Assembly (NCBI GenBank): GCA_050123235.1
Contig: JASFHL010000002.1
Coordinates: forward strand, 79,326 to 143,325
Length of the DNA: 64,000 nucleotides
Reading direction: 5' to 3'
DNA from: Candidatus Woesebacteria bacterium
GTDB taxonomy: Bacteria > Patescibacteriota > Microgenomatia > UBA1400 > PJMF01
Shown: positions 505-36,232 of the stretch, in pieces
Layout: the number at the start of each line of letters is the position of its first letter
Numbering within the stretch: position 1 is the first letter of the stretch
Position numbers and translations under genes: made by a program
The notes under the pieces: model-generated
Told to the model about the DNA's origin: nothing
Database searches by the model: none
What the model saw: only the letters and a program-made list of their open reading frames with translations

Positions 505-569
505 TTTACCAAACAGAAACTAAAAAAAGCTGGAATTATTAAATTCTTAGAAAAATAAAGAAAGGTCTT

Positions 570-1991: not shown

Positions 1992-1994
1992 ATC

Positions 1995-3273: not shown

Positions 3274-3280
3274 GAACAAA

Positions 3281-4423: not shown

Positions 4424-4465
4424 ATTGATTGCATTCAACTTCAAGATACGCTAACATGAATAGTA

Positions 4466-6676
4466 GTGCAAATTCCCACTATTATCAAAGTCCAGGATTT
4501 TCATAGTTATCCCCAGTCTGCCATTGGGCAACTAGCTTTAGTCAAACAAAAACTAAATAAAAACCAAATTCCTTTAGCCCCTACTTTCTGTATTCCCATT
4601 AATACTCTTGAAAAAATAGCAAAGTATAATCAGTTGCCAGCAAAAATTCTTGATTTGCAAACTAGAATCAAAATAGATGATCAAGCTATGCTTGATCGTT
4701 TACTAAAAAAAGTAAAAACTTTAATCACTTATCAAAAATTACCAAAAAGAATTAGTCTACAACTACTGAAATTTCATGACCTAGAAATAAAGAACAACTT
4801 TTTAAACATTTATCCTAGTTATATTAAGCAAGAAATAAATCGTGAAAAATTAGTTCATAAAAACATTATTGGCGAGAGCAATATGCTTGACTCAATTCTC
4901 AATCTTTGGGCTGAATCTCTTACTCAAAAAGATTTGGAAAAAAATAACATTTTTCCTGCAGCTATCATTTTAGAAATTAAATTCCAAGCAAAGGTAGCTG
5001 GCTTAGCTTATACTCTCAATCCACAAAATGCTAATAAAAGGCAGATTTTGATTAAATCAATTTGGGGTAATTTTCATCATTCTATCTTAGAAAATGAAGG
5101 TGACAGTTTTGTCTTGGACCAAAATAATTGGGAAATTATTTACAAAAATATCAAACAACAATTTTTTTATACAGAGCGAATTAGTGATAGACTTGAAGAA
5201 AAAAAATTAAAAAAAGAAAAGCAAAAAATAAGTTCTTTAACAGATGTTGAAGCTATTAATTTAGCTCAAATAGTACAAAAAATTAAACGACTCAATCTCA
5301 AACATCTAGTTATTAGCTGGTATAAAGCCAATCACAAATATTACATCTCAGATGTTCATTCCTATCAGCTGCAAACAAAGATTGAAGACTATTTACAATT
5401 GCCCATTGCTTTGGGCAAAACTATCAACCACGGTTTGATTATCGGCCAAGCTAAGTTTATAGACAAAGCATCAGCACTCAATGATATCAAAACTGACGAT
5501 ATTATTATCTTAGAAAAACTTGATCACAGCTTTCTAAACCAGTTAAGCAAGACAGCTGCCATAATTTGTGAAACAGGCATCAGCACACCTAGTATCTTGC
5601 AAGCTATTAAACAAGCTCAAATACCTTGCCTAACTCAAGTTAAATCAGCTAGAAAAAAAATCAGCAATGGCATGAAAATTCTACTTGATGCTAACCATGG
5701 CAAAGTTTTTCCTCACAAATATCCTTTCAAAGAGGAAAAGCAACAGCAACAACCTTTACTTAATGAATTTTCTAAACAAACAAATCTTAAACTCTATTTA
5801 TCAGCGTCGGTAACTGAATTAGATAAGCTAGATCAGTTGGCTGATGGAATTGGCTTATTAAAAAGTGAAAGCTTGTTTCTTCAAACAGGGGAGCATCCTC
5901 TACATTTAATTAGAAAATGTAGAGAAGATCAAATTAAAAAAACTTTTATTAATCAAATCAAAACTCTGGCTACTAAAATAACTCAAAGGGATTATCCTGT
6001 AATTTATCGTATCCAAACTTTAAACAGCCAAGAATTAAATTCTCTCAAACATGCTGATAATTTTGAAGTAAAAGAAGATAATCCTCACTTAGGTCTGAGA
6101 GGTAGTATCAAAACTGTTCATAATTTTGAAATTTTTGATTTTGAACTTGATCTAATTAGAGAGGCTCAAAAAATCTTACCCCAAATTAAAATTATGCTTG
6201 CTTTTGTTAGAACAGCTGCTGAATTGCAGTTAATTTTAAAGCACGTGCAGCATTCTTCAAAAGATAAGTATAGACAAATCCCAATTTGTCTGGAAATTGA
6301 TACCATTGAAAATATTTTAAATCTCAAATACTATTTACGGCAAAAATTAGCTGCTATTTCTATCAACGTGGAAGAGATAAACGCTTTAATTTATGGCATT
6401 GATCCCTGTAATCATGAAATTAAAAAATTTTATCCAATTGATATCCCCTTACTAGAAACACTCTTGCTTGAAATCGCTCAAGCTAAAAAAGAAGTCTTAG
6501 AAATGACTGATCAGCGAATTCCTGAAATTTATTTACATTTACCAGAAGCAAATGCCGAATTGATCGATATTGCTAGTAAACTAAATTTCACTGCTATCAC
6601 TATCGAGAGCAAGTTTTCAAGTTCAGCAAAAAAGTGTATTATTGAAATAGAGGAATTTACTAAAAAAAATAGTTGA
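4466..6676 (+). CDS. PEP-utilizing enzyme family protein (PEP synthase / pyruvate phosphate dikinase-like, divergent)
   Basis: C-terminal TIM-barrel signature NPHLGLRGS (compare NPxLGxRGxR of PEPS/PPDK/EI). The central segment IILEKLDHSFLNQLSKTAAIICETGISTPSILQAIKQAQIPCL aligns to the mobile phospho-His domain (…TExGGRTSHAAIxARExGIPxVVG). It lies between PGI and enolase. Confidence 0.55.
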   Translation: MQIPTIIKVQDFHSYPQSAIGQLALVKQKLNKNQIPLAPTFCIPINTLEKIAKYNQLPAKILDLQTRIKIDDQAMLDRLLKKVKTLITYQKLPKRISLQLLKFHDLEIKNNFLNIYPSYIKQEINREKLVHKNIIGESNMLDSILNLWAESLTQKDLEKNNIFPAAIILEIKFQAKVAGLAYTLNPQNANKRQILIKSIWGNFHHSILENEGDSFVLDQNNWEIIYKNIKQQFFYTERISDRLEEKKLKKEKQKISSLTDVEAINLAQIVQKIKRLNLKHLVISWYKANHKYYISDVHSYQLQTKIEDYLQLPIALGKTINHGLIIGQAKFIDKASALNDIKTDDIIILEKLDHSFLNQLSKTAAIICETGISTPSILQAIKQAQIPCLTQVKSARKKISNGMKILLDANHGKVFPHKYPFKEEKQQQQPLLNEFSKQTNLKLYLSASVTELDKLDQLADGIGLLKSESLFLQTGEHPLHLIRKCREDQIKKTFINQIKTLATKITQRDYPVIYRIQTLNSQELNSLKHADNFEVKEDNPHLGLRGSIKTVHNFEIFDFELDLIREAQKILPQIKIMLAFVRTAAELQLILKHVQHSSKDKYRQIPICLEIDTIENILNLKYYLRQKLAAISINVEEINALIYGIDPCNHEIKKFYPIDIPLLETLLLEIAQAKKEVLEMTDQRIPEIYLHLPEANAELIDIASKLNFTAITIESKFSSSAKKCIIEIEEFTKKNS

Positions 6677-24390: not shown

Positions 24391-25413
24391 ATGTTTAACT
24401 TTTTTCACCACAAAAAAAAGCAAGTGGAAATTTCCCCTTCAATAGTTGTCTTTTCTGCCTTTTTTTTACTCTTTCTATATTTTCTATATTACATTAGTTC
24501 AATCATTACGCTTTTATTTTTATCATTCATCATTATGATTGCTCTCAACGGAGCAGTAGCAAAAATTGAAAAACGCTTTAAAATTAATAGATTATTCAGT
24601 GTCATTTTTATTTATATTTTGGTGGTGCTAGTGAGCGTTACTATTTTTGCCTATTTGGTACCACCATTGGCTAAACAAGTCTACTTATTGCTACAAAGCA
24701 TTGATTTACCAGTAATAGATCATCTCAATAGCGTTGATAATTTGACTGAATTGAGTGAGCTGGCAGGAAAATATAGTAATTCTGTTAACACTATTTTTTC
24801 CTTTATCACTTCTACTTTTGCTAGTATCTTTACTTTCTTTACCTTGATAGTAATGTCTTTCTACTTAATTCTAGATAGACCAAAACTACACCTTAAACTT
24901 TATTGGTTTACCAAAGATAAAAAGAAAATTAAAATTGCCCAGGATTTTCTAGATTCAATTGAAAGTCAGCTCGGTGGTTGGGTCAGAGGACAGATCATTC
25001 TCATGACTATTATTGGCTTGGCTACCTTTCTGGGTCTGACTGTACTAAAAGTGCCATTTGCTTTGCCACTTGCTCTTTTGGCAGGGTTGTTGGAAATTTT
25101 ACCAAATCTAGGACCCACTATCGCTGCTGTGCCAGCAGTAGCTCTGGCTTTTATTAATCTTGGCCCTGCACGGGGACTAGCAACACTAATTTTCTATATT
25201 ATAGTTCAACAAGTAGAAAACAATTTTATAGTTCCAAAGATTATGAAGGAAAATGCTGATGTCAATCCTTTAGTGGCTATTACTTGTATCTTAATTGGTT
25301 TTAAAATTTATTCTGTAGTTGGGGCATTATTGGCAATTCCTGTTTATATTATTCTTAGAACTCTTTATTCCTTCTGGGCAAAATATAAAAAAAATATAGA
25401 AGCACCTTGGTGA
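24391..25413 (+). CDS. AI-2E family transporter (UPF0118/PerM-like)
   Basis: Eight predicted TM helices and the conserved LGGWVRGQ segment. Confidence 0.75.
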   Translation: MFNFFHHKKKQVEISPSIVVFSAFFLLFLYFLYYISSIITLLFLSFIIMIALNGAVAKIEKRFKINRLFSVIFIYILVVLVSVTIFAYLVPPLAKQVYLLLQSIDLPVIDHLNSVDNLTELSELAGKYSNSVNTIFSFITSTFASIFTFFTLIVMSFYLILDRPKLHLKLYWFTKDKKKIKIAQDFLDSIESQLGGWVRGQIILMTIIGLATFLGLTVLKVPFALPLALLAGLLEILPNLGPTIAAVPAVALAFINLGPARGLATLIFYIIVQQVENNFIVPKIMKENADVNPLVAITCILIGFKIYSVVGALLAIPVYIILRTLYSFWAKYKKNIEAPW

Positions 25414-25438
25414 GTAGATTTTTCGCAAAATAAAAAAT

Positions 25439-25507
25439 GAGCGGGTAACGATAAACTGCTCGAACCTAAGACCTCTTATCGAGCCTAGTTTGGAACTCCA
25501 GTTTCGT
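25439..25507. repeat. Truncated copy (C) of a conserved non-coding repeat family
   Basis: The 28-nt core GAGCGGGTAACGATAAACTGCTCGAACC is identical to the core in copy B (28536-28563). Following similarity is weaker (…CTAGTTTGGAACTCCAGTTTCG). On the minus strand the core is followed by ATTTTTTATTTTG. Confidence 0.6.
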
Positions 25508-25554
25508 AATTTGAAAGATCATCTTGGCATTTTCAGCTTTTCTCAAATATCTAG

Positions 25555-26451
25555 CTAGAAAGAAACATCATTCAAATCAGAACTAATATTTTGAGCAGAT
25601 ACTTTTAAAGCGTTATTTTGAGGAGCTAGTTTAACTACTTCGTCAATAAATTGCGTTTTTTCAGTAGAATTGACGACATAAAGCGGGTTGCCATCAACTG
25701 TGGATGATTGTGATCCGTATTTTTTTACAAGATCTACAAACTGCTGGTCTTTTAAAATATCAAGATTCATAACTCGCACTATTGTTCCAGAGGATGCATC
25801 CCTTTTTTCTCCGATTAAGTCTATCCACACACCCAACGAGCTTATTCCATATGGACCTGGTTCTCTTACATTCAACCAATAGCTTTGACCATTGATCATA
25901 ACCGTTTTATAGTTACTTAAGGATTGGAAATTATCTCCCATCCCCATATATTTTGAGTTTTGGTGGAAGAAATACACATTTCTGATGTCGCCTGAAAATT
26001 CAGGATTTTCAACTCTGATGGACATATTGGCATAATTTTCGTCGGGAACAAAACAGTTTATTGAATTTTGAACACCGTAGGCAGTTTTTATTGATTGATC
26101 TAAAGTGAACGGTAGTTTGTTTAGACTGATCTTACTATTTAGGCAAAATTGAGAAAGGGCTTCAGATAGGTTAATTTTATTTGTTGTTTCTGTAGAGGCA
26201 GATGATGGGATTATAATTTCATCATTTCTCTCACTTATTGGAGTAGGAGTTGTCTGTTCTATTGACTTTAACGGTTGAGATTTATTACCAATGTAATATC
26301 CACTCAAGCCGAAGACTACAGCAGTAACCAAAAAAGTAATCAGTAATGGGAATAATATGTTATTCTTGTTTGTTGAAAAATTTTCAGCTTGGACAACTGG
26401 CCGATTAACTATAGTATTTTCGGGTGGATTTGCTTGACTTTTATCTTCCAT
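25555..26451 (-). CDS. Hypothetical membrane-anchored protein (N-terminal TM, extracytoplasmic domain)
   Basis: A single N-terminal hydrophobic helix, then an S/T/N-rich linker. No motif recognised. Confidence 0.4.
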   Translation of the reverse strand: MEDKSQANPPENTIVNRPVVQAENFSTNKNNILFPLLITFLVTAVVFGLSGYYIGNKSQPLKSIEQTTPTPISERNDEIIIPSSASTETTNKINLSEALSQFCLNSKISLNKLPFTLDQSIKTAYGVQNSINCFVPDENYANMSIRVENPEFSGDIRNVYFFHQNSKYMGMGDNFQSLSNYKTVMINGQSYWLNVREPGPYGISSLGVWIDLIGEKRDASSGTIVRVMNLDILKDQQFVDLVKKYGSQSSTVDGNPLYVVNSTEKTQFIDEVVKLAPQNNALKVSAQNISSDLNDVSF

Positions 26452-26496
26452 ATTTTAATTATGGCTTAACTAAAGATAAATAACAAGAACATTTGC

Positions 26497-26722
26497 GGTT
26501 CGATTCCCATCACCGGTATTGCAACTTTCCAGACTAAACGAATTTTTGTAAAAGATGAGGCTCAAACTCGAGGAAATGCGAACTACTTGGGGAAAATTGA
26601 AGCCACAACAAAACTGCTCCCGTATGGAGCGGGTATGAGCGGGTAACGGTACTTTGCTCGAACCTATTTGGCCTGGACGACTATATCAAACCCGATCTAG
26701 TTTTGCAGTTACAAGCTCTTAA
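26497..26722. repeat. Copy A of the roughly 220-nt conserved non-coding repeat
   Basis: Collinear with copy B over about 220 nt (start GGTTCGATTCCCATCACCGGTATT … end CCCGATCTAGTTTTGCAGTT), with a 10-nt internal tandem duplication (GAGCGGGTAT-GAGCGGGTAA). It lies immediately 3' of the minus-strand gene 26737..27288. Confidence 0.7.
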
Positions 26723-26736
26723 GGGTCACTTAAATA

Positions 26737-27288
26737 TTAAGAGTTTTTCTCAAATAATTTAAACATTTGTGATTCTTTATCGTATGAACGAGCAGTTTCA
26801 AAAGCCTCCTCTAGAGATTTTTTGTTTTGAGCCAACTCATATGCGATATGAGTACCAAATAAATACGCTGAATTCCCGAAAGGCGCTCCAGAGGGTGCAA
26901 TATATTTTTTCACACCTGCATCTAGAAATGAGTTTGCTAGCTCTTTGTTTCCGGTCTCACACCCCAAGCTAACAATATTTTTATCTTTCAGATTTGCATA
27001 TTCCTTCACATCTTCTGCAGATAATGGTTTTTCTCCTGGGCATGTATATATGCCTTCTTTTTCATCACCATGGCATGCAATAAAAATTAAGTCTTCAGTT
27101 TTAATATTACCTTTGAGTATTTCTAGCAACTGTTTTCTGGATCCAATAAAGTGAATGTTTACATTGAACCAAAACCTTTCAAAAGCAAGTCTTAAGGCTT
27201 GAGCTTCAAGATCTGAATTTTCTAAAACAATTAGCGAAACTGGCAATTGTGATACTAACGGTGCTTCATGGTATTTATGTTCAGACAT
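26737..27288 (-). CDS. Small caspase-like protein, clan-CD peptidase-like His/Cys dyad (paralog 1)
   Basis: Beta-strand then HG (DLIFIACHGDEKEG), and about 35 aa later a second strand then Cys (NIVSLGCETGN). This is the pattern of caspase/CHAT p20 domains. It is a paralog of 28663..29298. Confidence 0.4.
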   Translation of the reverse strand: MSEHKYHEAPLVSQLPVSLIVLENSDLEAQALRLAFERFWFNVNIHFIGSRKQLLEILKGNIKTEDLIFIACHGDEKEGIYTCPGEKPLSAEDVKEYANLKDKNIVSLGCETGNKELANSFLDAGVKKYIAPSGAPFGNSAYLFGTHIAYELAQNKKSLEEAFETARSYDKESQMFKLFEKNS

Positions 27289-27477
27289 ATCAAGTTAATT
27301 ATAGAAGAATTGGCTACGCTTTGGTATAGTCAGCTTACCGAATGATCTCTATGGTGAAGGTGCCTTACTTTTAGGGAACGATTGTTGGTGCTGGTGCACC
27401 AGTGATCCATCTTAGCTACAGGGATCGCTAGTCACTAATCAAGATGGAGAAATTTATTTTGCTCAAAATAACATTTT

Positions 27478-28359
27478 ATGTCACAAGGAAAGATTTTTGA
27501 ACAAATTGTCAGTTTGATCGAACACAGTTTAAAAAGTGACGAGAATGTCACAGTAAAGCACGATGTCAAACTAGTTGATTCATTAGGAATAGAAAGACAA
27601 ATTGATGTTTATATAACAGCTTTTATAAATGAGCATGAAATCACTGTCGCCATTGAGTGTAAGGATCACAACAGTAAAGTAAAAATTACTGAAATAGATG
27701 CATTTGATAGTAAAACTCGGAAACTTGCGGTGGATAAGCGAATATTTGTTTCTAAAAATGGTTATCAGTCAGGAGCAATCAAAACTGCAAAAAAAACAGG
27801 AATAGAATTGTGCACCCTTTCAAATCTTTCAAAAGAAGTACTAAAATCTTGGTTGCAAATACCAGGACTTCAAATGATAAATCAAATATATGATTTTAAA
27901 CACTCAAGATTTAATTTAGCTAAAGAAACGACAGTCAAAAAATTACCACCAAATTATGATATTGAGTCAAATCTATACTTGGCTGACAAGAAAAAACAAA
28001 TATCTACATCAGAGGTTAGACAGAACCTTATTAATCAGCTCTCAAAGCAACATCCTGACTTTTTTGAACCCAATAAGACCAAAAAAGTAGTTTTCAATTT
28101 CCCCAAGGAACCATATTACTTAAAAATTAATAATTTATTTGAACGAATAGATAATATTGAATCAATTATTTTTTTTAGATCGGAAATAACAAATCACCCG
28201 ATTTCTTATATACAACAATATTCACAGATTAATGGAAAAAATATTGCGAAGGCAGCGTCAATCGAGTTTCCTGCGTTATCTCAAGAATTTATCTTGAGCT
28301 TTGTTAGGTCAGAAAGTGACAACCTTACAAGGGTAGTTATTGCACCCAAAAAGAAATAG
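27478..28359 (+). CDS. Protein with an N-terminal Mrr-type restriction endonuclease (PD-(D/E)xK) domain and a C-terminal region of unknown function
   Basis: LVDSLGIERQIDVYI…ITVAIECKDHNSKVKITEIDAF…IFVSKNGYQSGAIKTAKKTGIELCTL fits the Mrr_cat pattern (D…ExK, followed by the conserved A…A…gI.L segment). The C-terminal roughly 170 aa have no recognisable motif. Confidence 0.55.
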   Translation: MSQGKIFEQIVSLIEHSLKSDENVTVKHDVKLVDSLGIERQIDVYITAFINEHEITVAIECKDHNSKVKITEIDAFDSKTRKLAVDKRIFVSKNGYQSGAIKTAKKTGIELCTLSNLSKEVLKSWLQIPGLQMINQIYDFKHSRFNLAKETTVKKLPPNYDIESNLYLADKKKQISTSEVRQNLINQLSKQHPDFFEPNKTKKVVFNFPKEPYYLKINNLFERIDNIESIIFFRSEITNHPISYIQQYSQINGKNIAKAASIEFPALSQEFILSFVRSESDNLTRVVIAPKKK

Positions 28360-28404
28360 ATTTATGGGATACTTTGTTTTATTATTGAACTGGCTCCGAC
28401 GGAG

Positions 28405-28622
28405 GAGTTCGATTCTCGTCACCGGTATTATACCTTTCCAGGCTAACGTAATTTTTGTGAATTTTGAGGCTCGAACTCGGGGAAAGATGGATTACTTTGG
28501 GAAATTTTAGGCCACGACAAAACTACTCCCGTATGGAGCGGGTAACGATAAACTGCTCGAACCCATTTGGCCTGGATGACTATATCAAACCCGATCTGGT
28601 CTTGCAGTTGAATCTTCTTAAA
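28405..28622. repeat. Copy B of the roughly 220-nt conserved non-coding repeat
   Basis: Collinear with copy A. It contains the core GAGCGGGTAACGATAAACTGCTCGAACC (28536-28563) and internal complementary segments (GAGTTCGA / TCGAACTC). It lies immediately 3' of the minus-strand gene 28663..29298. Confidence 0.7.
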
Positions 28623-28662
28623 GAGCGAATGGGTATTAGATCCCTTGTTAATACTTAACCTT

Positions 28663-29298
28663 CTAATTATTAAGTCTTTTGTCTGTTGGTTCTATAAGTA
28701 CTCTTTCGGCTTGATTTAGGACACCAGAAATTCCCTGTACATAATATATTGGACAACCAATCTCGTCGACTATCCACTGTGGAATATTATAAGTACCCAC
28801 CCCTTCTGAGTTAGCACTACAAGCATCAAACGCTATTAATGTATATTTATTTTTGCCTGTTAAATCCTTGATTGGACCTCTCAAAAAATCTTCAACATCA
28901 ACAATTTTTTCACCAAATCCTTTAGTAGAAATAATCCATCGACCCTGTTTTTCTGCACCATGTCCATGAATAAGAAGTATGTTTGGAGATTCTGCAGATA
29001 ATATATCAATCAACCTGTTTTGTACAGAATCATAACTATCTCTTTTAATGCCAAAAATTCTTGTCAAAGAAATTAGAGGTTTAAATCTCGCATCTTTGAA
29101 CTCATGTTTTTCACCAAAAACTGTAACTTCTTCTACTGTATGTTGCCAATCAAGTATGACGCTATCGACACGAGCATCTCTTTCAAACTCAGGAGTAAAT
29201 TGAAAACCTGACTCTGTTAACACGAAAGGCCCTTTGTTAAATACTATTCGTGCCTTATCACCCTGCTGAAGAACATAATCAGTATAATTTTCAGGCAT
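28663..29298 (-). CDS. Small caspase-like protein, clan-CD peptidase-like His/Cys dyad (paralog 2)
   Basis: NILLIHGHGAEKQG (HG motif) and KYTLIAFDACSANSEG (Cys motif), with the same spacing and pattern as 26737..27288, plus an extra N-terminal extension of about 80 aa. Confidence 0.4.
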   Translation of the reverse strand: MPENYTDYVLQQGDKARIVFNKGPFVLTESGFQFTPEFERDARVDSVILDWQHTVEEVTVFGEKHEFKDARFKPLISLTRIFGIKRDSYDSVQNRLIDILSAESPNILLIHGHGAEKQGRWIISTKGFGEKIVDVEDFLRGPIKDLTGKNKYTLIAFDACSANSEGVGTYNIPQWIVDEIGCPIYYVQGISGVLNQAERVLIEPTDKRLNN

Positions 29299-29349
29299 AT
29301 TTCATGATATTACTTAATGTAATTTTCTGTTTATTTCTGCCACTTTTTG

Positions 29350-29422
29350 AGCGAGAGACGGGATTCGAACCCGCGACCTTCTCCTTGGCAAGGAGACATT
29401 CTAGCCACTGAACTACTCTCGC
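29350..29422 (-). tRNA. tRNA-Gly (anticodon GCC)
   Basis: Reverse complement folds: acceptor GCGAGAG, anticodon stem CTCCT/AGGAG with loop TT-GCC-AA, T-arm GCGGGTTCGAATCCCGT. Confidence 0.8.
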
Positions 29423-29499
29423 TTTTCTTAATCAAAACTTAGCTAAAATTTCTAGCACCAGTCTTTCAATTTTTAATCTCCAACTTTTAACTCATTCTG

Positions 29500-29572
29500 T
29501 GCCAAGCTGAGGAATCGAACCTCAATCTCATGTTTTTCAGACACGCGCCGTGACCAACTTGGCTAGCTTGGC
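29500..29572 (-). tRNA. tRNA-Phe (anticodon GAA)
   Basis: Reverse complement: acceptor GCCAAGC, anticodon loop CT-GAA-AA, T-arm TGAGGTTCGATTCCTCA. Confidence 0.8.
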
Positions 29573-29639
29573 TAATTTTATCTTATCTTAAAAACAACCT
29601 CCCTATCCTAGCCTTATTCTAAAAATTTTTCAAGCCTAG

Positions 29640-29713
29640 TGGGCAATGTAGGATTCGAACCTACGACCTCTTCGATGTAAGCGAAGCACTCTAACCAGCT
29701 GAGCTAATTGCCC
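29640..29713 (-). tRNA. tRNA-Val (anticodon TAC)
   Basis: Reverse complement: GGGCAATTAGCTCAGCTGGTTAGAGTG…, anticodon loop CT-TAC-AT, T-arm GTAGGTTCGAATCCTAC. Confidence 0.8.
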
Positions 29714-30022
29714 TTTATTAACAACGATATTATAACCTCAATCATTGAATAAGTCTTGAGGTAATTAAATTTATTGACCTCTCATTTAAAAACATATATA
29801 CTACATATTAAGATATAAAAGTATTGCTTTATAAAAAAACCTAAAATTAATAAAGCAATCAAAAATAATGAGGCATCATCTTAATTTGCTCCATAAAAAA
29901 AAAATTCATCAGTTCAGCACTGGCAGATATTTTTTTCCTCTCAATCTTTCCTTTATAAAGCAAATTATCAATCACTCTCTCCCTACAGTTTGCTGGCGGG
30001 ATGAGCTAATTAAAGGAAATAT

Positions 30023-31351
30023 ATGATCACAGTCACTCCAGAAAAACCGCTATCAGCTAGCAACGTGGAGGGTGATCCTGCTACCGAAAGACAACTTTCA
30101 GCTCCTCCCCAACTTCGACCTAGAGAAATTGCTTATCAGGAACCCGGTGAGCCTTTGTCAGGAGAAAGATTGGAAGAATTAAGAGAAATTTTAGCTCTAG
30201 ATCATCAGCCTACTTTAGAAGCCTTAGCTTCTCATCTTTTTCAGAGTGACTTGGATCGAGCTCAAGAGTATTTGGCAGAATTAGCAATTGTAATGAATTT
30301 CCCAACAACGAAACTTTTTGTTCGTGATGCTAATACTGTTTTCCAAGATAAAGAAACTCTTGATTTAAAATTGAGCTTACTTGGCATAAATCCTCACACT
30401 TTTGGGGATCTTATGAGGATCAGAAATAACGATCCACAAGCAAATATAAGTAGAGCCACTTTGCTGAAAGAAGTTAATGACAGCAGCTTTACCGTAGCAA
30501 AAAGACTAGCTGAAGTTTGGACTGAAGTAAACTCAAGAGGCTACAAAGGTTACGTTGATTTATTAAATCAAATGGGTTGCACTCAAGAAAGAATAGCTGA
30601 TGCTGAAATTTTATTGGCTAATCTAGTAAACAGATTTTTACCAGGATTAACTGATGTACTTGATATCCATGATCCTCAATATAATCATAATCCAAATTTA
30701 GCATTGCCAGAATTACGACTGGCTGCAGCAAGTTCTAAAGAACTAGAAGAACTTTTTGGTCTAGATACTATCCCTTCTGCAGAATCAGATCTATTAGCTC
30801 CAGGTACGGCTACAGCTATGTTTTTTGCTAGAATTAATGAGCAAGAAAAATTAGAAAAAAAAGTGACCATTCTTCATGGCAAAGGTGATCCAAGAACAAA
30901 ACATGAAGTAGGACACGTATTAACTGATTATGCTTTAACTGATGCTGGTTTGCCTTTCTCATTAATGACTGATATGGAATTAACTGAAGCTGCCAGTAGA
31001 TTCAGCGAAAGAATGGATATCAGAGAAACTATTTTTAATCTTGCTACTTTAGTGGCAAGTTATAGATTAGCTAAAGACATAGATACATTGATGAGAATAC
31101 CACAACTAGATTTAGATAAAAAGATTTTTGTTTTGCAAGACGATATAACAGAAGCAGCGGACCAAGAATTAGATTGTGGCATTAAAGCGGCACCAGGAGC
31201 TGCTCATCTTTGGATGGGCCCTTTTGCAGTACCATATTGGATGGGTACTGCCAGCGCTGTTTCTATGAGGCTAGCTTTAAGTGAAGAAGAAAATCCTAAA
31301 ACTCAGATAGAAGCGATTGCCATGGTTTTGCAACAATATGGAGTTCTCTAG
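30023..31351 (+). CDS. Hypothetical protein with G+C and codon usage atypical for the window (possibly acquired)
   Basis: A 442-aa ORF rich in L/E/A/D. G+C is visibly higher than in flanking genes (frequent CTG, GCC, CGA, GAG codons). No motif recognised. Confidence 0.5.
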   Translation: MITVTPEKPLSASNVEGDPATERQLSAPPQLRPREIAYQEPGEPLSGERLEELREILALDHQPTLEALASHLFQSDLDRAQEYLAELAIVMNFPTTKLFVRDANTVFQDKETLDLKLSLLGINPHTFGDLMRIRNNDPQANISRATLLKEVNDSSFTVAKRLAEVWTEVNSRGYKGYVDLLNQMGCTQERIADAEILLANLVNRFLPGLTDVLDIHDPQYNHNPNLALPELRLAAASSKELEELFGLDTIPSAESDLLAPGTATAMFFARINEQEKLEKKVTILHGKGDPRTKHEVGHVLTDYALTDAGLPFSLMTDMELTEAASRFSERMDIRETIFNLATLVASYRLAKDIDTLMRIPQLDLDKKIFVLQDDITEAADQELDCGIKAAPGAAHLWMGPFAVPYWMGTASAVSMRLALSEEENPKTQIEAIAMVLQQYGVL

Positions 31352-31645
31352 AATTTTTATTTAAGAATTTTAGGGAAGGCTTAGTCTGAAAATAAGCTGA
31401 TAAATCACATATCAAATATGCCCTTGACTGTAAAAATGAAATACTTCATAGTAACTACAGCTTTTTTAAAAATATTTGAGCACCAAGATTAGAAAATTAA
31501 TGCAAAAACTAATTTTTTTTTTGCCAACACTAAGCTTTCTCTCCGATTCTAAATACCGCTATCAAATTTGCAATTCCCCAAAAATAGAAACTCATAAAAA
31601 AATTGAATTATTGGAATTTCTATTAAATAAAAATAAAAGTAAAAA

Positions 31646-31669
31646 ACTCCCAAATGGGAGTTTTTTTTT
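31646..31669 (+). terminator. Rho-independent terminator-like hairpin plus T9 run
   Basis: ACTCCCA-aa-TGGGAGT followed by TTTTTTTTT. It ends about 17 nt before the argG start codon. Confidence 0.6.
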
Positions 31670-31686
31670 GTAGGCAAAGGTCATTT

Positions 31687-32886
31687 ATGTCCAAAAAACA
31701 ACAGAATAAAAAACTAATTTTAGCTTTTTCAGGTGGACTGGATACATCTTTTTCAATTCCTTATCTAAAAGATCAAGGTTACCAAGTTATCACAGTCACT
31801 CTTGATTCAGGAGGTTTTTCTAAAAAGGAATTAATAGCCATTAAAAAGAAATCAAGAAAATTAGGTGCCAGCAAGCATTACCAGGTTGATATCAAAAAAG
31901 AACTTTACGAAGAAGTTATCTCCTGGATTATCAAAAGCAATGGTCTTTATGAAGGTTCTTACCCTAACATGTGTGCTGACCGCTATCTGATTGCCAAAAA
32001 ATGTATTGAAATCGCCAAAAAAGAAAATGCAAAATATGTAGCCCACGGTTCAACTGCCATGGGCAATGATCAAGTGCGTTTTGATTTAGCTTTAATGGCA
32101 TTAGGGCCAAATATCAAAATTGTGGAACCAATCAAAGAAATCGGTGGAGATAGAAAAGTAGAACTTAATTTTTTAAAAGACAGAGGTTTTGATGTCAGTT
32201 GGAAGCACCAACAATATTCCATCAATGAAAATATCATGGGTTTAACTTACTCTGGATCAACTATTGACCAAAGTAAAGAAGCAGATAGTAAGATTTTTAA
32301 ACTTGTTACTGCCAAAGAGATAAAGAAAAGTAAGTATTTGAGCGTTAGTTTCAAAGCTGGAGAACTAGTAAAAGTCAACAATAAAGCTATGTCTGGCTCA
32401 GAAGCGATTGCCTACTTAAATAAAGTAGTCGGACAACATGGTTTTGGCAAAATGTACTATACCGGTGACTGTATTATTGGCATTAAAGGCAGGATAGCCA
32501 TTGAAGCTCCTGCACTTTATTTTTTAATCATCGCCCATCGCGCTCTAGAGCAACAGGTTTTAACCAAAACTCAAATTGATTTCGGAGTCCCAGTTTCACA
32601 GCGCCTTACGGAAATGATTTACAATGGTAAATTTTATGATCCGCTGGTGACTGATCTAAAAACTTTTCTTGACTCGCAACAAAAAAACGTGACTGGGACT
32701 GTCAAAATGAAGCTGGAATATGGACAAGCTTTGCCAGTTGAAATCAAAACTTCCAATTCATTAATTGATCATAAAACAGCCACTTATGCTCAAAGCTGTA
32801 GCTGGACAAGAGAAGATGCTGATGGTTTTATCAAACTTTATGGTTTACAGTCTAATCTGGCACATAGAATATCAACAAAAAAATGA
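31687..32886 (+). CDS. argG: Argininosuccinate synthase
   Basis: N-type ATP pyrophosphatase P-loop AFSGGLDTS, size about 400 aa. Start taken as MSKKQQ at 31687; the track ORF start at 31654 lies inside the terminator. Confidence 0.85.
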   Translation: MSKKQQNKKLILAFSGGLDTSFSIPYLKDQGYQVITVTLDSGGFSKKELIAIKKKSRKLGASKHYQVDIKKELYEEVISWIIKSNGLYEGSYPNMCADRYLIAKKCIEIAKKENAKYVAHGSTAMGNDQVRFDLALMALGPNIKIVEPIKEIGGDRKVELNFLKDRGFDVSWKHQQYSINENIMGLTYSGSTIDQSKEADSKIFKLVTAKEIKKSKYLSVSFKAGELVKVNNKAMSGSEAIAYLNKVVGQHGFGKMYYTGDCIIGIKGRIAIEAPALYFLIIAHRALEQQVLTKTQIDFGVPVSQRLTEMIYNGKFYDPLVTDLKTFLDSQQKNVTGTVKMKLEYGQALPVEIKTSNSLIDHKTATYAQSCSWTREDADGFIKLYGLQSNLAHRISTKK

Positions 32887-33521
32887 AAAAAAACAAAGCC
32901 AAATACCATTTATCGCATTATCAATTTTTTGATGCCAATGTTTTACATTCAATTCCTAATACTTTAAAAACTATTATTGCCAAACAAATGGTTAATCTTT
33001 TAAAAGAACATCAAGAAACTATGCTTCAACCCAGCATGACCGAATTGATTGAAAATCTAAACACAGGCCAAGTGGTCATATCTTGGGATACTGAAAATAA
33101 TGCTGTTGCTGGTTTCGGAAGAGCTAGTCTTTGGCCAGGAAAAAATAAAAAAAAGCAAAAAGTCTATGAATTTGGTAGTTGGCTAGTGCAGAAAGAATAT
33201 CAAGGCCAAGGAATTGGCAGAAAAGTCCTTTATTTGATGATTGATTATTTAAAACGCGAAAATAAAAAATTACAAATTATCGCGGTCTGTTCTGAAAGCA
33301 ATCCTCGCCCTGTCCAAGTTTTACAGCTAGCTGGTGCTCAACTCACTAGTCAACCAAGTAATGTTAAAGTTTTACTTGGAGAAGGTGAGGCAAAAGTAGT
33401 CTTTCTGGACTTAACAAATATTGATGCTAAGTCTGTAGCTGATTTACCAAAAAAAATGATTGAGAAGTTCCAAAAACAGCTTTACTCACCAACTTATGGA
33501 AATGGTTGTGTACATCTTTAA
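32883..33521 (+). CDS. GNAT family N-acetyltransferase
   Basis: Acetyl-CoA binding motif QGQGIGRKVL (Q/RxxGxG/A), in a GNAT-fold-sized protein. Confidence 0.65.
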   Translation: MKKNKAKYHLSHYQFFDANVLHSIPNTLKTIIAKQMVNLLKEHQETMLQPSMTELIENLNTGQVVISWDTENNAVAGFGRASLWPGKNKKKQKVYEFGSWLVQKEYQGQGIGRKVLYLMIDYLKRENKKLQIIAVCSESNPRPVQVLQLAGAQLTSQPSNVKVLLGEGEAKVVFLDLTNIDAKSVADLPKKMIEKFQKQLYSPTYGNGCVHL

Positions 33522-34969
33522 ATATGCTGAAGCAAAACCAAAACTTACTAATTGAAAATTGTGAATTAATTTATACAGTCAATCAACAAAGAGATGTTCT
33601 AGAAAAAACTGACATTTATCTTGAAGATAATTTAATTAAAAAAATTGGCAAAAATTTAAGACAAAACATAAAAAATAAAATTAACGAGACTATTGATGCC
33701 TCTGAGATGATTGCGTTGCCTGGTTTTATTAATACCCATCATCATCTTTTTCAGACACTTTTTAGAGGCATTGATCTATTAAAAAAACGACCGATTGTGG
33801 AATGGATACAAACACTTTCGGCTTTAGTTGAATTTATGGATGAAGAGGCAATTGATATCGCAGTTAAAATTGGAATTGCTGAATTACTTTTGTCTGGTTG
33901 TACTACTACTAGTGATCATTTATATGTTTTTCCACACGGGAGAGAAAGCTTATTTGATGCTGAAGTAAAAGCAGCAGAAAAAATGGCAATTCGCTTTCAT
34001 CCTATTCGCGGCAATTTATCAGTCAATGAACAAGGGGAGAGTCTTTTTCCTGACTATGTTTTAGAAACTGAAGATCAGGTTCTCAGTCGATCAAAAGCGG
34101 CTATTGAAAAATATCATGATGATTCAAAACTTTCTATGTGTAGACTCGGTTTAGGACCTTGTGGTATTTACTCAGCTTCCAAAAATCTATTTGAAAAAAT
34201 CGGCCAGTTAGCAAAAAAACACCAGCTTAACTTACATACTCATCTTTTAGAAACAGCTGATGAACATCAATTAAGCAAACAGTTATTTAAAATGGATCTC
34301 TTTGATTTTTTATCATCAACTAATTTCTTAGGAAAACATGCTTGGCATGCTCATGCTGTTTATGCCACAAAAAATGATGTCAAAACCTTAGCTAAAATAA
34401 AAACTGGCATCTCTTACACCCCTTGGTGCACTACTGCCAAAAAACAAGTTACTCCAGTTATACAAATGCTTAAACACGGCGTGCCTGTTAGCATCGGCAC
34501 TGATGGATCTGCTGGCAATGATGCCTCAAATTTAATGGTGGAGGCAAGATTGGCGGGTAGATTGCAAGGTATGAATCAAGAAGTTAAAACAGTTTCCTAT
34601 CTGCGAGCTACAGAAATATTAGAATTACTCACCATTGGCGGGGCACGTTGTTTAGGGCGAGAAGATGTTTTGGGATCGATTGAAAAAAATAAGGTTGCAG
34701 ACTTAGTACTTATTAATATTAAAGATAAATTAGAATGTAGTGGCTGTGATAATCCTTTGGAAGCTATTTTTCATACAGCTCTAAATCGCGTTGATTACTC
34801 AATAATTAACGGAAAAATAATTGTCAAACAAGGCCAATTAAACAACTCTAAACTAGATTTAAAAAAAATGATCAAAATTCATAACGCTATTGCTAAAAAA
34901 GTAAGACAAAAGGCAGAAAAAAAATTAAATAAAAATCTCAGGCTAAAATGGCAAAAAGCATTTATTTAA
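33506..34969 (+). CDS. Amidohydrolase family protein (nucleoside/nucleobase deaminase-like, similar to MTA/SAH deaminase or guanine deaminase)
   Basis: Metal-binding GFINTHHHL (HxH), a mid-protein HLLET motif and a distal D. About 490 aa. The substrate is not inferable from sequence. Confidence 0.65.
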   Translation: MCTSLNMLKQNQNLLIENCELIYTVNQQRDVLEKTDIYLEDNLIKKIGKNLRQNIKNKINETIDASEMIALPGFINTHHHLFQTLFRGIDLLKKRPIVEWIQTLSALVEFMDEEAIDIAVKIGIAELLLSGCTTTSDHLYVFPHGRESLFDAEVKAAEKMAIRFHPIRGNLSVNEQGESLFPDYVLETEDQVLSRSKAAIEKYHDDSKLSMCRLGLGPCGIYSASKNLFEKIGQLAKKHQLNLHTHLLETADEHQLSKQLFKMDLFDFLSSTNFLGKHAWHAHAVYATKNDVKTLAKIKTGISYTPWCTTAKKQVTPVIQMLKHGVPVSIGTDGSAGNDASNLMVEARLAGRLQGMNQEVKTVSYLRATEILELLTIGGARCLGREDVLGSIEKNKVADLVLINIKDKLECSGCDNPLEAIFHTALNRVDYSIINGKIIVKQGQLNNSKLDLKKMIKIHNAIAKKVRQKAEKKLNKNLRLKWQKAFI

Positions 34970-34990
34970 AAATTAGTTAAAGGAGCAATA

Positions 34991-36232
34991 ATGACCTCAA
35001 TAAAAGAAAAAAAAGCTAAAAAGAGAGTTAGACAATATATTGACCAGAACATCGTTAAAAAAGTGTATTCTAACAAAGCTGTGGATAAAGTAGCTTGGGT
35101 CGTCGGCTCCACACCTCCTCCTTTAACTATAGAAATGGAAAGATTGAGATATAAAGCTCCACATCACCCTTCTCTTAAGGAAATTTTTAAAGCTAGAACT
35201 CGCTTAGCCGCAGAAATGTATTTAACCAGAACCTGTGCTCTCAATTGTCTAGGCTGCTCAGTGCCTACTTACATTCGTTGGGGTAAAGAAGAAAAAAGAA
35301 CTTGTCAAGAATGGCAGAAATTAATCATTGAGCTAAAAGAAAGGGGATTGAAAGCAGTTAAATTTATTGGTGGTGAGGTTGGTTTTATTCCATGGCTACC
35401 AGATGTAGTCAAAACTGCTTTAAATCATGATCTAGTAGCAACTGTCTTTACTGATGGGATCCCATTTCTCAGAAAGCCTGAAAGACTAGAAAGACTATAC
35501 GAACTCAGTGACGGCAAAGTTATTCTTTATACCAGCCTTGATTTTTTACCACCAAGAAAAAAACTAACATCAAAAGCTGCGCTTAATCCCGAAACTTCTA
35601 GAGCATATAAAGCTCAGGAAGCATTAAAATTCATTGATCAAGCAATTGATTTTGGTTTTCCAGTGGTTGCGCATATGATGGTTTTTGCTGGAAACTATAA
35701 TTTAATAGAAAAAATTTATCAAAAGGTGACACAGCATGGAGCTAAATTTTCTATTGGCACTATGCAAGTGGACTGCCATCTTTATCAAGGTAGAAATCCA
35801 AAAAACTATGCTCAAGCTTTGACTAAAAAACATCGAAGCAAAATTAAACAACAGATGCTCAAACTACTAAAAATTGAAGATAAAAATGTGAAAGCAGGTC
35901 GGCGAACATTTGTTAATTCTAGAGCTCATTTAGCTAGCTTGCATACAGAAGGCATTAATCCTAAAGTTGATTGCAATAATCGCTTGGGGCCACCAGCAGT
36001 TTTTGCGGTGATGCCTAATCATGATCTCAGACATTGCCCAGTGATCCAAACTTTAGATCAGGTGAAACAATGTCAAGGTTGTTCTTACGCAGTCTTCAGA
36101 GATTCAGACCCTGAAAGAGCTAAATTTTTAAAAGAGAAAGGAATATATAAACCAAAAAAGGGAGTAGTTGATTTTCCATCTTTAATTTATCCAACTGAAG
36201 AAAATAATCAACTAGAAAAATTGTATGAATAA
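34991..36232 (+). CDS. Radical SAM domain protein with an additional C-terminal Cys cluster
   Basis: CALNCLGC matches CxxxCxxC. C-terminal cysteines (CNNRLG…HCPV…CQGCSY) suggest an auxiliary Fe-S (SPASM/twitch-like) region. Confidence 0.55.
   Translation: MTSIKEKKAKKRVRQYIDQNIVKKVYSNKAVDKVAWVVGSTPPPLTIEMERLRYKAPHHPSLKEIFKARTRLAAEMYLTRTCALNCLGCSVPTYIRWGKEEKRTCQEWQKLIIELKERGLKAVKFIGGEVGFIPWLPDVVKTALNHDLVATVFTDGIPFLRKPERLERLYELSDGKVILYTSLDFLPPRKKLTSKAALNPETSRAYKAQEALKFIDQAIDFGFPVVAHMMVFAGNYNLIEKIYQKVTQHGAKFSIGTMQVDCHLYQGRNPKNYAQALTKKHRSKIKQQMLKLLKIEDKNVKAGRRTFVNSRAHLASLHTEGINPKVDCNNRLGPPAVFAVMPNHDLRHCPVIQTLDQVKQCQGCSYAVFRDSDPERAKFLKEKGIYKPKKGVVDFPSLIYPTEENNQLEKLYE

Follow-up and report, generated by a model that had tools for sequence, protein, structure and literature searches.

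Tandem integrase-less cassettes at the 3′ end of tRNA-Gly in a Woesebacteria genome, apparently left by phage-type serine integrases

What has been assembled between the AI-2E family transporter gene and the tRNA cluster of this Candidatus Woesebacteria contig, and by what means? The 64,000-nt stretch analyzed here (the window) carries at this place a series of small genes and repeats, which a preliminary description had read as an accessory island at a tRNA hotspot and as a protease-plus-nuclease defence or abortive-infection system. We consider it likely that the segment is an array of integrase-less cassettes inserted serially at the 3′ end of tRNA-Gly(GCC), in which the repeats, here termed ELs, would combine an att core with the displaced tail of a large serine recombinase (LSR). 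The order on the minus strand is tRNA-Gly(GCC), cassette A (211-aa gene and EL), cassette B (Mrr-like nuclease, 183-aa protein and EL), cassette C (298-aa protein and EL) and the AI-2E gene, with the following features.

24391..25413, plus strand: AI-2E family transporter gene (Pfam E 7e-52), the conserved chromosomal flank bounding the array
25437-29348: tandem array of three small integrase-less cassettes
25437..25554, minus strand: EL copy 3, last element of the array (core 25439-25465)
25555..26451, minus strand: cassette C cargo, 298-aa membrane protein with an N-terminal transmembrane anchor
26498..26635, minus strand: type-2 start of cassette C, with a terminator-like hairpin (26616-26630)
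26636..26773, minus strand: EL copy 1, end of cassette B (nhmmer E 1.7e-35; core 26637-26663)
26737..27288, minus strand: cassette B cargo, 183-aa stand-alone protein of predicted caspase/CHAT fold, with a conserved His-Cys dyad
27478..28359, plus strand: cassette B cargo, 293-aa protein with an N-terminal Mrr_cat PD-(D/E)xK nuclease domain, antisense to the other cargo
28400..28532, minus strand: type-2 start of cassette B, with a terminator-like hairpin (28525-28539), a GAGTTCGAGCCTC motif and an inverted tRNA-3′-like piece at its end
28464-28658, plus strand: putative relic ORF of 64 aa, intact in repeat copy 2, ..RLELGERWITLGNFRPRQNYSR followed by MERVTINCSN...NT and the stop
28533..28662, minus strand: EL copy 2, end of cassette A (nhmmer E 2.7e-31; tRNA-Gly-like core 28536-28562)
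28663..29298, minus strand: cassette A cargo, 211-aa protein with invariant HGHG and DACS motifs
29299..29348, minus strand: type-1 cassette start, AAAAAGTGGCAGAAATAAACAGAAAATTACAT..., immediately after the tRNA-Gly 3′ end
29349..29422, minus strand: tRNA-Gly(GCC) (ARAGORN, Rfam), anchor of the array by its 3′ end (attL side)
29499-29572, minus strand: tRNA-Phe, upstream of tRNA-Gly(GCC)
29639-29713, minus strand: tRNA-Val, upstream of tRNA-Gly(GCC)

The three clustered tRNA genes, Gly(GCC), Phe and Val (29349-29713, minus strand), were as first described, and no integrase or other recombinase was found in the window, again in agreement with the preliminary description. Its reading of the segment as an island at a tRNA hotspot was borne out by synteny with a distant relative (locus L079), which shares the miaB-miaA-AI-2E flank and has an identical tRNA-Gly(GCC)-Phe-Val cluster. 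Seven genes lie between the shared flanks in L079, none of them related to the cargo of the window, and the terminal EL adjoins AI-2E at the position equivalent to EL copy 3, the core of which is 24 nt from the AI-2E stop codon in the window. These results support the view that 25437-29348 is accessory DNA, brought together by horizontal transfer at a tRNA hotspot for integration.

The three repeat copies noticed earlier are real, two being full (26498-26722 and 28407-28621, ~80% identical) and the third partial (starting at 25437), but they are not peculiar to this locus, as the core was found in 92 metagenome stretches. The 27-nt core, GTTCGAGCNNNNTANNGTNACCCGCTC, occurs three times on the minus strand of the window against 0 expected. 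An EL is ~120 nt long, and its terminal 27-35 nt mimic the 3′ end of tRNA-Gly, the two aligning as GGTTCGA..CGT..CCCGCTCCA. The tRNA-Gly(GCC) of the window itself has CGCTC alone in common with the EL core at the junction. Many loci have the type-1 start motif behind a tRNA-Gly gene or an EL core, and its reverse complement matches the final ~12 nt of an LSR gene in locus L243; it is probably a P′ half-site plus the promoter of the cargo gene. In comparisons of sequence, z values of about 1-3 weakly support homology of the type-2 starts with an LSR 3′ end.

Across the metagenomes, EL arrays begin where a tRNA-Gly gene ends, at its 3′ terminus. A co-oriented tRNA-Gly lies upstream in 31 of 90 EL loci, the tally being 32 for Gly and at most 5 for any other tRNA. 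Wherever a locus holds at least two core-containing ELs, these are co-oriented (24/24), with a median spacing of 1053 nt, and most ELs sit directly behind a co-oriented ORF. Of 45 cargo proteins gathered from these loci, almost all are mutually unrelated, and cupins, GNATs, NUDIX, HAD and methyltransferases are among the kinds that precede the repeat. The same 217-aa cassette stands behind tRNA-Gly(CCC) in locus L048 and behind an EL core in L101, both junctions reading ...GCTC followed by ATAAAGTGACAGAA. Likewise, homology between the 183-aa cassette of the window and its Roizmanbacteria counterpart, which sits directly behind tRNA-Gly(CCC), ends exactly at the core, ...ACCCGCTCAT.

The repeat had been called non-coding, which is half right, since a relic frame is present and the 64-aa ORF is intact in copy 2; in EL copy 1 a tandem duplication of 10 nt breaks it (GAGCGGGTA at 26627-26635 and 26637-26645). 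Among ELs, variation is greatest at the third codon position and greater at the first than at the second, deletions between variants are in frame, and the start codon is absent in half of the copies, a pattern that fits a relic C-terminal coding tail. In locus L089, an LSR fragment adjoins an EL and runs in frame into the same tail. With this LSR-plus-tail as the query, tblastn found the ORF 28464-28658 (E 1.3e-14), which resembles the C-terminal end of an LSR in its uninterrupted (attP-like) form. Since one frame passes from the LSR into the EL, the EL looks like the 3′ terminus, now displaced, of an integrase gene spanning attP, and its frame would be the LSR tail in the excised state.

An LSR 74% identical to the L089 fragment is encoded on the phage contig 3300038436_000160 of IMG/VR (58,954 nt), which was read as two separate end pieces on either side of a 46-kb middle part. 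This 543-aa protein consists of Resolvase, Recombinase and Zn ribbon domains, and its gene adjoins an XRE/M78 lysogeny module. At one end of the contig the LSR ORF runs through an antisense tRNA-Gly(CCC), and at the other an EL is followed by a type-1 cassette. As neither the window nor most arrays hold a recombinase, we infer catalysis by this LSR from two or three loci.

The cassettes were apparently left by phage-type serine integrases. The autonomous form would be a temperate phage of Microgenomates whose LSR gene carries attP inside its own frame. Integration would set the LSR gene against tRNA-Gly, with an EL remaining at the opposite prophage end. Of this EL, the final ~30 nt, which mimic the acceptor 3′ end and T-arm of tRNA-Gly, would be the att core, and the other ~90 nt the displaced 3′-terminal coding tail. 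The cassettes may have arisen from such elements by deletion, or be satellites in which the two half-sites, a type-1 or type-2 start and the EL core, are preserved; they would be mobilizable in trans, now or formerly. Newer insertions at the tRNA would displace older ones outward. LSRs normally need half-sites of only ~25 bp, so att function does not explain why integrase-less cassettes retain the ~90-nt tail. Neither excised circles nor empty sites within one population were observed.

We next consider whether the cargo forms a defence or abortive-infection island, in which caspase-like proteases and an Mrr-type nuclease would cooperate and the repeats would be a regulatory or RNA component. 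The 293-aa protein does carry the Mrr-type nuclease domain recognized earlier (Pfam PF04471, Mrr_cat; 31.3 bits, above the cut-off of 21; E 2.4e-7), with D...ExK present (IDVYI...VAIECKD). Of the two proteins described as caspase-like paralogs, the AF2 model of the 183-aa protein (pLDDT 89) confirmed a predicted caspase/CHAT fold; Foldseek matched it best to SAVED-CHAT (E 2.5e-7) and then to Craspase TPR-CHAT, caspases, separase and gingipain, and H73-G74 and G109-C110 are invariant in the family. Paralogy with the 211-aa protein was not detectable by sequence (BLASTP E 0.002 over 47 aa; hhalign probability 1.3%). Defence systems frequently carry caspase/CHAT folds and Mrr_cat domains alike, and the nuclease and 183-aa genes lie in one cassette interval (26636-28532). 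Nevertheless, PADLOC, NCBIfam and PHROG gave no match for any of the proteins, the 183-aa protein has no fused sensor domain such as SAVED or TPR, and its homologs have varied neighbors, never an Mrr gene. The 211-aa gene lies in a separate cassette, and its homolog in Levybacteria has an unrelated gene context; relatives of the 298-aa protein are cargo in other arrays, and a similar gene comes after an EL on phage contig L105. The repeat follows every kind of cargo and has neither RNA covariation nor an Rfam match. A cooperating defence system is therefore quite improbable, and the best explanation is that the 211-aa protein, nuclease, caspase-fold protein and membrane protein are independent passengers. 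As one group of ultra-small (CPR) bacteria shows this architecture repeatedly, the locus looks like a hotspot for foreign-gene acquisition and not a defence system.

The other alternatives concern the repeat and its movement. That the EL is a free-standing small gene (40-100 aa, family 'ERVT'), or else a terminator or structured RNA that is repeated by coincidence, is very improbable. Public data contain 147 small ORFs called in this family, with conserved hydrophobic positions and a three-helix AF2 model, and two junctions have terminator-like hairpins. However, less than half of the copies have a start codon immediately before the conserved GAG, the first 7 residues of the model are disordered while the first ~19 codons are almost invariant in nucleotides, Pfam, PHROG and fold searches gave no match, folding z-scores are 0 to -1.8, and the frame continues an LSR ORF. 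Homologous recombination alone, by DNA uptake and crossover between the ~120-200-nt conserved EL/tRNA-Gly sequences or by local duplication, would suit ELs that are 80-95% identical over >100 nt and flank every cassette, as well as the lack of a recombinase in most arrays. We regard it as unlikely, given that conservation ends abruptly with the tRNA-like core (in 69 of 91 distinct junctions the sequences on the other side are unrelated), that either a tRNA-Gly 3′ end or an EL core can serve as left junction, and that an LSR phage has tRNA-Gly at one boundary and an EL at the other. An active, integron-like capture platform is possible, if doubtful: cassettes of 0.5-3 kb would be small mobile units and not products of decay, and would circularize and be inserted or excised by LSRs in trans, with the EL core and cassette start as a portable attP. 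Dozens of one-gene cassettes with both conserved ends, the same cassette at differing ranks and in differing genomes, the attP-like arrangement at internal junctions, the overwhelmingly non-phage cargo and the many contig breaks at ELs all favor it. On the other hand, no circular forms were seen, no directionality factor, which LSR recombination of attL with attR normally requires, was identified, several ELs are degenerate, and just 17 of the 91 distinct junctions are strictly type 1.

The CPR cassette arrays, read as serial integrase-less insertions, are a variant of tRNA-targeted integrative elements. Integrons (IntI, attI, attC) also consist of co-oriented, mostly single-gene cassettes with diverse cargo and a conserved ~100-nt element after each; here, in contrast, there is no IntI, the EL has neither an attC-type hairpin nor R″/R′ sites, a tRNA gene serves as the anchor, and the candidate recombinase lies on the far side in convergent orientation. 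Staphylococcal SCC composite islands arise by tandem insertion at the 3′ end of one small conserved gene, rlmH, with direct repeats between, and serine recombinases are involved there and in the Dehalococcoides ssrA islands. Those islands are several kb long and differ from the present arrays in target gene and host. In Dehalococcoides, site-specific insertions that recur at the 3′ end of ssrA likewise leave islands in tandem, with copies of that end as direct repeats between them (PMC3146451). The tRNA/tmRNA islands and prophages of the Islander database share insertion at tRNA 3′ ends, a displaced tRNA-like fragment distally and tandem arrays from serial insertions, although an integrase was required there for each island and candidates <2 kb were rejected (PMC4383910). 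Compared with them, most units here are 0.5-3 kb long and integrase-less, a serine and not a tyrosine enzyme is the candidate recombinase, and the ~120-nt repeat has an insertion in the T-loop of its tRNA mimic. Prochlorococcus tycheposons also bring cargo to tRNA genes, newcomers pushing older elements inward, and their islands, like this array, are scattered with degraded remnants and partial tRNAs (bioRxiv 10.1101/2020.12.28.424599). Here, by contrast, the host is a CPR Microgenomates, tRNA-Gly isoacceptors are the sole target, the cassettes are mostly single-gene, and the remnants retain a defined integrase-tail relic. The genes for Mx8 IntP and the SSV integrase span attP, and integration splits or alters their 3′ ends so that the prophage C-terminus differs (cited in PMC4383910; Tojo et al. 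1996). The LSR ORF is similar in ending in antisense tRNA-Gly when integrated and in the EL tail when attP-like, whereas those enzymes are tyrosine integrases and the displaced tails here persist as a repeat family.

The 442-aa ORF that had been counted as part of the island sits across the tRNA cluster, outside the array. Its G+C is 0.378 against 0.337 for the window, and its GC3 of 0.221 falls within the 0.20-0.29 of its neighbors, so the ORF is not compositionally foreign as had been proposed. It is a near-orphan with 3 distant relatives.

The last base of the tRNA-Gly(GCC) gene is the start of an array of cassettes in this low-G+C (0.337) CPR genome. Cassette A carries the gene for a 211-aa protein, cassette B those for an Mrr-like and a 183-aa protein, and cassette C that for a 298-aa protein, and each contains a copy of the EL, a conserved ~120-nt repeat whose core resembles the 3′ end of tRNA-Gly. 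The features of the region are as follows.

30023-31351, plus strand: 442-aa ORF, upstream of tRNA-Val
29713-29349, minus strand: tRNA-Val, tRNA-Phe and tRNA-Gly(GCC)
29298-28663, minus strand: gene for the 211-aa protein
28407-28621, minus strand: repeat copy 2 (full), between the 211-aa gene and the Mrr-like gene
27478-28359, opposite strand to the rest of the array: gene for the Mrr-like protein (293 aa)
27288-26737, minus strand: gene for the 183-aa protein
26498-26722, minus strand: repeat copy 1 (full), between the 183-aa and 298-aa genes
26451-25555, minus strand: gene for the 298-aa protein, membrane-anchored
repeat copy 3 (partial), minus strand: between the 298-aa gene and the AI-2E transporter gene
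AI-2E transporter gene, convergent: 3′ end at 25413

The two full copies are about 80% identical, and copy 3 has the gene-distal ~115 nt in common with them. The 27-nt core GTTCGAGCNNNNTANNGTNACCCGCTC occurs three times on the minus strand of the window, against none expected. Copies 1 and 2 look like 225-nt repeats because cassettes B and C both open with the type-2 start, one of two conserved cassette beginnings.

The core pattern was matched in 92 metagenome DNA stretches, and a nucleotide HMM built from these matches retrieved further, more degenerate copies within the same loci. In all 24 loci with at least two core-containing ELs, the ELs are co-oriented, with a median spacing of 1053 nt (range 492-4704), and a co-oriented ORF lies directly upstream of most ELs. 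Almost none of the 45 cargo ORFs collected is related to another; the types read from their sequences include cupin, AAA ATPase, HD, NUDIX, GNAT, HAD, HIT and PIN proteins, methyltransferases, a kinase and an IS200-type transposase. Conservation ends sharply at ...ACC(C/A)GCTC; of 91 distinct junctions, 69 continue into unrelated sequence, and the inverted repeat GTCAC N11 GTGAC spans the junctions.

Several loci show further peculiarities at or near the ELs. In L007, L014, L017, L027, L033, L036, L041, L042, L058, L063, L068, L069 and L072, the contig stops no more than ~150 nt from an EL core, which is consistent with assembly breaks at the repeat or with strain heterogeneity at the junctions. 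A perfect palindrome, TACCCGCTCATTTTGC-ttc-GCAAAATGAGCGGGTA, followed by a T-run, lies exactly at an EL junction in L004 (9484-9516) and is either a scar of recombination or a terminator formed by the core end and its inverted copy. The unit of EL core, 8 nt and tRNA-Thr(CGT) is found twice on the contig of L029 (3715-3931 and 6928-7126), 3.2 kb apart. The cassette ORF of L034, which ends 143 nt from the EL junction, looks by eye like an IS200/IS605-type Y1 transposase from its translated motif, and mobile-element genes thus seem to travel as cassette cargo too.

In 31 of 90 loci, ARAGORN located a co-oriented tRNA-Gly gene (CCC, GCC or TCC) upstream of the ELs. Among the upstream tRNAs, Gly was counted 32 times and each other tRNA at most five times, and the non-Gly tRNAs are neighbours within the same tRNA clusters. 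The EL core mimics GGTTCGA..CGT..CCCGCTCCA of the tRNA-Gly 3′ end with an insertion in the T-loop, which places a direct repeat at the distal boundary; the tRNA-Gly of L004, for example, reads GACGGGTTCGACTCCCGTATCCCGCTCCA, and the corresponding EL stretch AGGTTCGAGCAGTTTATCGTTACCCGCTCA. The likeness is confined to the 3′ ~30 nt, and the EL was ruled out as a whole degenerate tRNA-Gly because this stretch alone aligns (whole-tRNA alignment z, 2.4).

Both types of cassette start are found after tRNA-Gly genes and after EL cores. The type-1 start is a short motif, AAAGTGACAGAAAT..TTACAT, located in the window at 29348-29299, immediately after tRNA-Gly(GCC). The type-2 start comprises ~150 nt, begins with a hairpin and a T-run, and opens cassettes B and C. 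The TGTCAC repeats were considered as part of a diversity-generating retroelement, as Tn7-like ends or as iterons; these candidates were dropped, as the motif is the cassette start beside tRNA-Gly. At the end of the type-2 start is a piece resembling a tRNA 3′ half (GGTTCGATTCC..CACCGGTA; window 26498-26522 and 28417-28441, plus strand), which is inverted with respect to tRNA-Gly, is kept in about 10 other loci, and was called by neither ARAGORN nor Rfam. The junction of EL copy 1 contains a 10-nt tandem duplication, GAGCGGGTA, at 26627-26645 (26627-26635 and 26637-26645). From its sequence, the duplication reads as the EL core end plus 10 nt left over from the acceptor end of a tRNA-Gly on the next cassette.

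The cassettes are found as units in different surroundings. The 183-aa gene of the window and the EL behind it share 83% identity with a segment from Roizmanbacteria, and the homology stops exactly at ...ACCCGCTCAT; the Roizmanbacteria unit lies immediately behind tRNA-Gly(CCC) in another chromosomal neighbourhood than in the window. A cassette encoding a 217-aa protein (82% nucleotide identity) comes first after tRNA-Gly(CCC) in L048, and in L101 it ranks second and is preceded by an EL core; both left junctions read ...GCTC/ATAAAGTGACAGAA. Conversely, the same surroundings hold different genes. The distant relative L079 carries MiaB (62% identity), MiaA, AI-2E and the identical tRNA-Gly(GCC)-Phe-Val cluster, and between AI-2E and tRNA-Gly it has two ELs and seven genes, none of which is similar to the four of the window. 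As content differs between the same flanks, the conserved gene order that the preliminary description had named as evidence against its accessory island was not observed.

On the strand opposite to the cargo genes, the EL contains an ORF-like frame, ERVT(I/V)xCSNL...LQLxxLKxHLxIxSF, in variants of 38-85 codons that are distinguished by in-frame deletions. Past codon 12, nucleotide diversity is highest at the third codon position, followed by the first and then the second, and almost no position varies in the first ~19 codons. Less than half of the EL copies have a start codon immediately before the conserved GAG. Public data contain 147 called small ORFs of this family; all named ones come from Microgenomates-type CPR or WWE3, and no Pfam domain was detected in the 147.

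A probable origin of this frame is indicated by L089, in which the C-terminal fragment of a large serine recombinase (LSR), containing the zinc-ribbon domain, adjoins the EL and runs in frame into it (...FPPVHSH/MERVTIRCSNLF...FN, then stop). With this fragment as query, a full-length LSR of 74% identity was retrieved from one end of the IMG/VR contig 3300038436_000160 (58,954 nt), which was read as two non-overlapping end stretches. The LSR of 543 aa has Resolvase, Recombinase and zinc-ribbon domains, lies beside an XRE repressor and an M78/ImmA-type protein, and is convergent with tRNA-Gly(CCC), its ORF passing through the antisense tRNA (...SPSHSP/MERDTGIEPVFFAWEANVLPLN, then stop). At the opposite end of the contig, phage-like genes (LPD38 large polyvalent protein and M23 peptidase) precede an EL, behind which come a type-1 start and a gene similar to that of the 298-aa protein in the window. 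A second phage contig has the same LSR/tRNA-Gly end, and a third has the same EL end. The 543-aa LSR (L242) and one of 538 aa (L243) both have the three domains and abut tRNA-Gly; they belong to the related phage and not to the window.

Sequence comparison suggests that traces of the same gene are present in the window. The ORF at 28464-28658 (RLELGERWITLGNFRPRQNYSR/MERVTINCSN...) looks like a relic LSR C-terminus, and the duplication at the junction of EL copy 1 puts a stop into the putative relic ORF. The reverse complement of the type-1 start (..TGTCACATCTG/GAGCGG) matches the final bases of the L243 LSR gene (..TTCACATCTG/GAGCGG), which would fit a retained P′ half-site. The type-2 start has the same 67-nt spacing as the LSR 3′ end and aligns to it with z values of 1-3, pointing weakly to a longer LSR remnant. 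Other LSR genes were seen to converge on tRNA-Gln, tRNA-His and tRNA-Leu genes and to touch their 3′ ends (L011 2543-4188, L095 1297-1739, L091 2381-2808 and L089 7865-9232), which suggests that tRNA-targeting LSR elements are a general family in these CPR genomes. Because these other LSRs abut tRNA-Gln, -His or -Leu, the link of tRNA-Gly to the candidate LSR rests on two or three loci.

The simplest reading of the phage contigs would be an integrated temperate phage, in which tRNA-Gly is followed by the LSR gene pointing towards it, the phage genes, the EL and an older cassette. The attP site would be located in the coding sequence near the 3′ end of the LSR gene, so that integration would carry the last 40-80 LSR codons to the opposite end of the prophage and leave them there as the EL. 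In tandem arrays, every internal junction would rebuild an attP-like arrangement. The small cassettes could then be either what deletions have left behind, no longer mobile, or satellites that can still be mobilised in trans. A more ambitious version, to which we give a distinctly smaller than even chance, would make the tRNA-Gly genes of Microgenomates an integron-like capture platform and a main route by which these reduced genomes gain genes horizontally: cassettes of one gene each (0.5-3 kb) would keep both half-sites of a phage-type LSR, in the cassette start and the EL core, and would be inserted, excised and exchanged in trans, while the LSR gene would span attP, its C-terminal tail switching between the excised and integrated states and perhaps setting directionality. 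Integrases extending across attP are known from Mx8 and SSV (PMC4383910); these are tyrosine enzymes. The window contains no recombinase gene, as already noted in the preliminary description, nor do the arrays examined on long contigs, and no recombinase is recurrent among ~200 flanking ORFs save a few LSRs and IS transposases. An integrase within EL-associated elements was found only on the phage contigs (L242/L243) and as the L089 fragment, and is absent from the cassettes of the window and from most arrays. Neither circular forms nor empty sites within one population were seen.

Co-oriented single-gene cassettes with diverse cargo and a repeat after each are features of an integron. In an integron, however, IntI is expected beside the array, whereas here no tyrosine recombinase was recurrent in the ~200 flanking ORFs or present in the window. 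The attC site of integrons forms an imperfect end-to-end hairpin with R′′/R′ (RYYYAAC / GTTRRRY), which the ELs lack: single-stranded DNA folds of both strands of four ELs gave z values of -0.3 to -1.8 and no end-to-end hairpin, ruling out an attC-like structure, and the EL terminal sequence GTTCGAGC...CCGCTC differs from GTTRRRY. The array therefore resembles an integron superficially, with neither IntI nor attC. Its architecture works like that of tRNA-targeted, tandem-accreting elements such as Islander islands, tycheposons and ssrA islands; 3′-end insertion at an intact tRNA, a distal tRNA-end repeat and variable content between the flanks are all present. An integrase in each element, as expected of such an island, is lacking from the cassettes of the window and from most arrays. 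What is unusual here is the small size of the units, their lack of integrases, the exclusive use of tRNA-Gly isoacceptors, a candidate integrase of the serine type whose gene would span attP, and a displaced tail that would be kept as a repeat family across Microgenomates. Literature searches on CPR integrons, cassettes and att sites found no description of this architecture.

Other explanations of the EL fared less well. A structured RNA or a known RNA family was rejected, as Rfam returned tRNAs only at both gathering and E-value thresholds, the fold z was about 0, and RNAalifold on 40 ELs gave four invariant pairs and zero covariation. The small ORF was considered as a ribbon-helix-helix protein; it had no Pfam, PHROG or fold match, and its AF2 model consists of three helices (pLDDT 68). 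The LSR of L011 was rejected as the array integrase, as it adjoins tRNA-Gln and not an EL and is without viral relatives. Scanning viral contigs for attL-type junctions and tRNA-Gly 3′ ends gave chance matches only, among the matches listed, and the repeat had no match in phage and plasmid databases. Searches by tblastn with XerD, lambda Int and resolvase motifs yielded nothing relevant, the sole match in the window being inside an iPGM gene.

The genomes of CPR bacteria are tiny, and to our knowledge descriptions of recognisable mobile elements in them are few. A tRNA-Gly hotspot that is shared across the lineage and stacks single accessory genes would help to explain the gain and shuffling of accessory functions in these bacteria. 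The hotspot has a candidate serine integrase and a ~120-nt signature, and the signature provides a simple handle on the flexible gene pool in Microgenomates metagenomes. Units of this kind would escape island finders that require an integrase per island and >2 kb. A serine integrase gene spanning its own attP would be unusual and could inform the control of recombination directionality.

No support was obtained for the cargo proteins of the window acting as one system. The model of the 183-aa protein (pLDDT 89.3) has a caspase-hemoglobinase fold, and its Foldseek matches include SAVED-CHAT, Craspase, caspases, separase and gingipain (E, 2.5e-7 to 1e-4). H73-G74 and G109-C110, containing the His-Cys dyad, are invariant in the family, for which the search found nine members only. 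NCBI lists the 183-aa protein under a Candidatus Woesebacteria MAG. The protein is thus, as judged from the model, a minimal caspase/CHAT-fold protein, and it scores below the gathering threshold of Pfam CHAT (12.6 bits, cut-off 24; E, 0.09). The 190-nt spacer between the divergent 183-aa and Mrr genes (27289-27477) is somewhat G+C-richer; the 15-mer GCTGACTATACCAAA, which lies ~40 nt ahead of the start of the 183-aa gene, recurs in the upstream region of the L007 homologue and may be a promoter or operator. The 211-aa family has five members with invariant HGHG and DACS motifs and no Pfam or PDB match for the window protein. The 293-aa protein matches Mrr_cat (PF04471; 31.3 bits versus a gathering score of 21), with the D...ExK motif in IDVYI...VAIECKD.

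The preliminary description had interpreted the island as a protease-nuclease defence system with two paralogous caspase-like proteins and a compositionally foreign 442-aa ORF; of this, the accessory island is supported and the rest is not. Profile comparison of the 211-aa and 183-aa families gave an hhalign probability of 1.3%, which does not support paralogy. PADLOC-DB 2.0 returned zero matches at E < 0.1 for five proteins of the window, NCBIfam and PHROG models matched none of the 183-aa, 211-aa and 293-aa proteins, and homologues of the cargo proteins were not found travelling together, so that a coordinated protease-nuclease system is unsupported. Single cargo genes could still be defensive, and for practical purposes we regard the protease and nuclease genes as unrelated passengers.

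The 442-aa ORF is outside the array, as it lies upstream of tRNA-Val. Its G+C content of 0.378 is elevated at the first and second codon positions only, whereas at third positions (GC3, 0.221) it does not stand out from the window. Searches of Pfam, PDB and PHROG matched no domain or structure to it, and three distant relatives (23-24% identity) were found among 1.84 billion representative proteins. The ORF is a lineage-specific orphan and no compositional alien. It is followed at 31654-36232 by argG and genes for a GNAT acetyltransferase, an amidohydrolase, a radical-SAM protein and a DUF6282 protein; argG and the GNAT gene are neighbours in L003 as well (53% identity), the sole related genome locus found.
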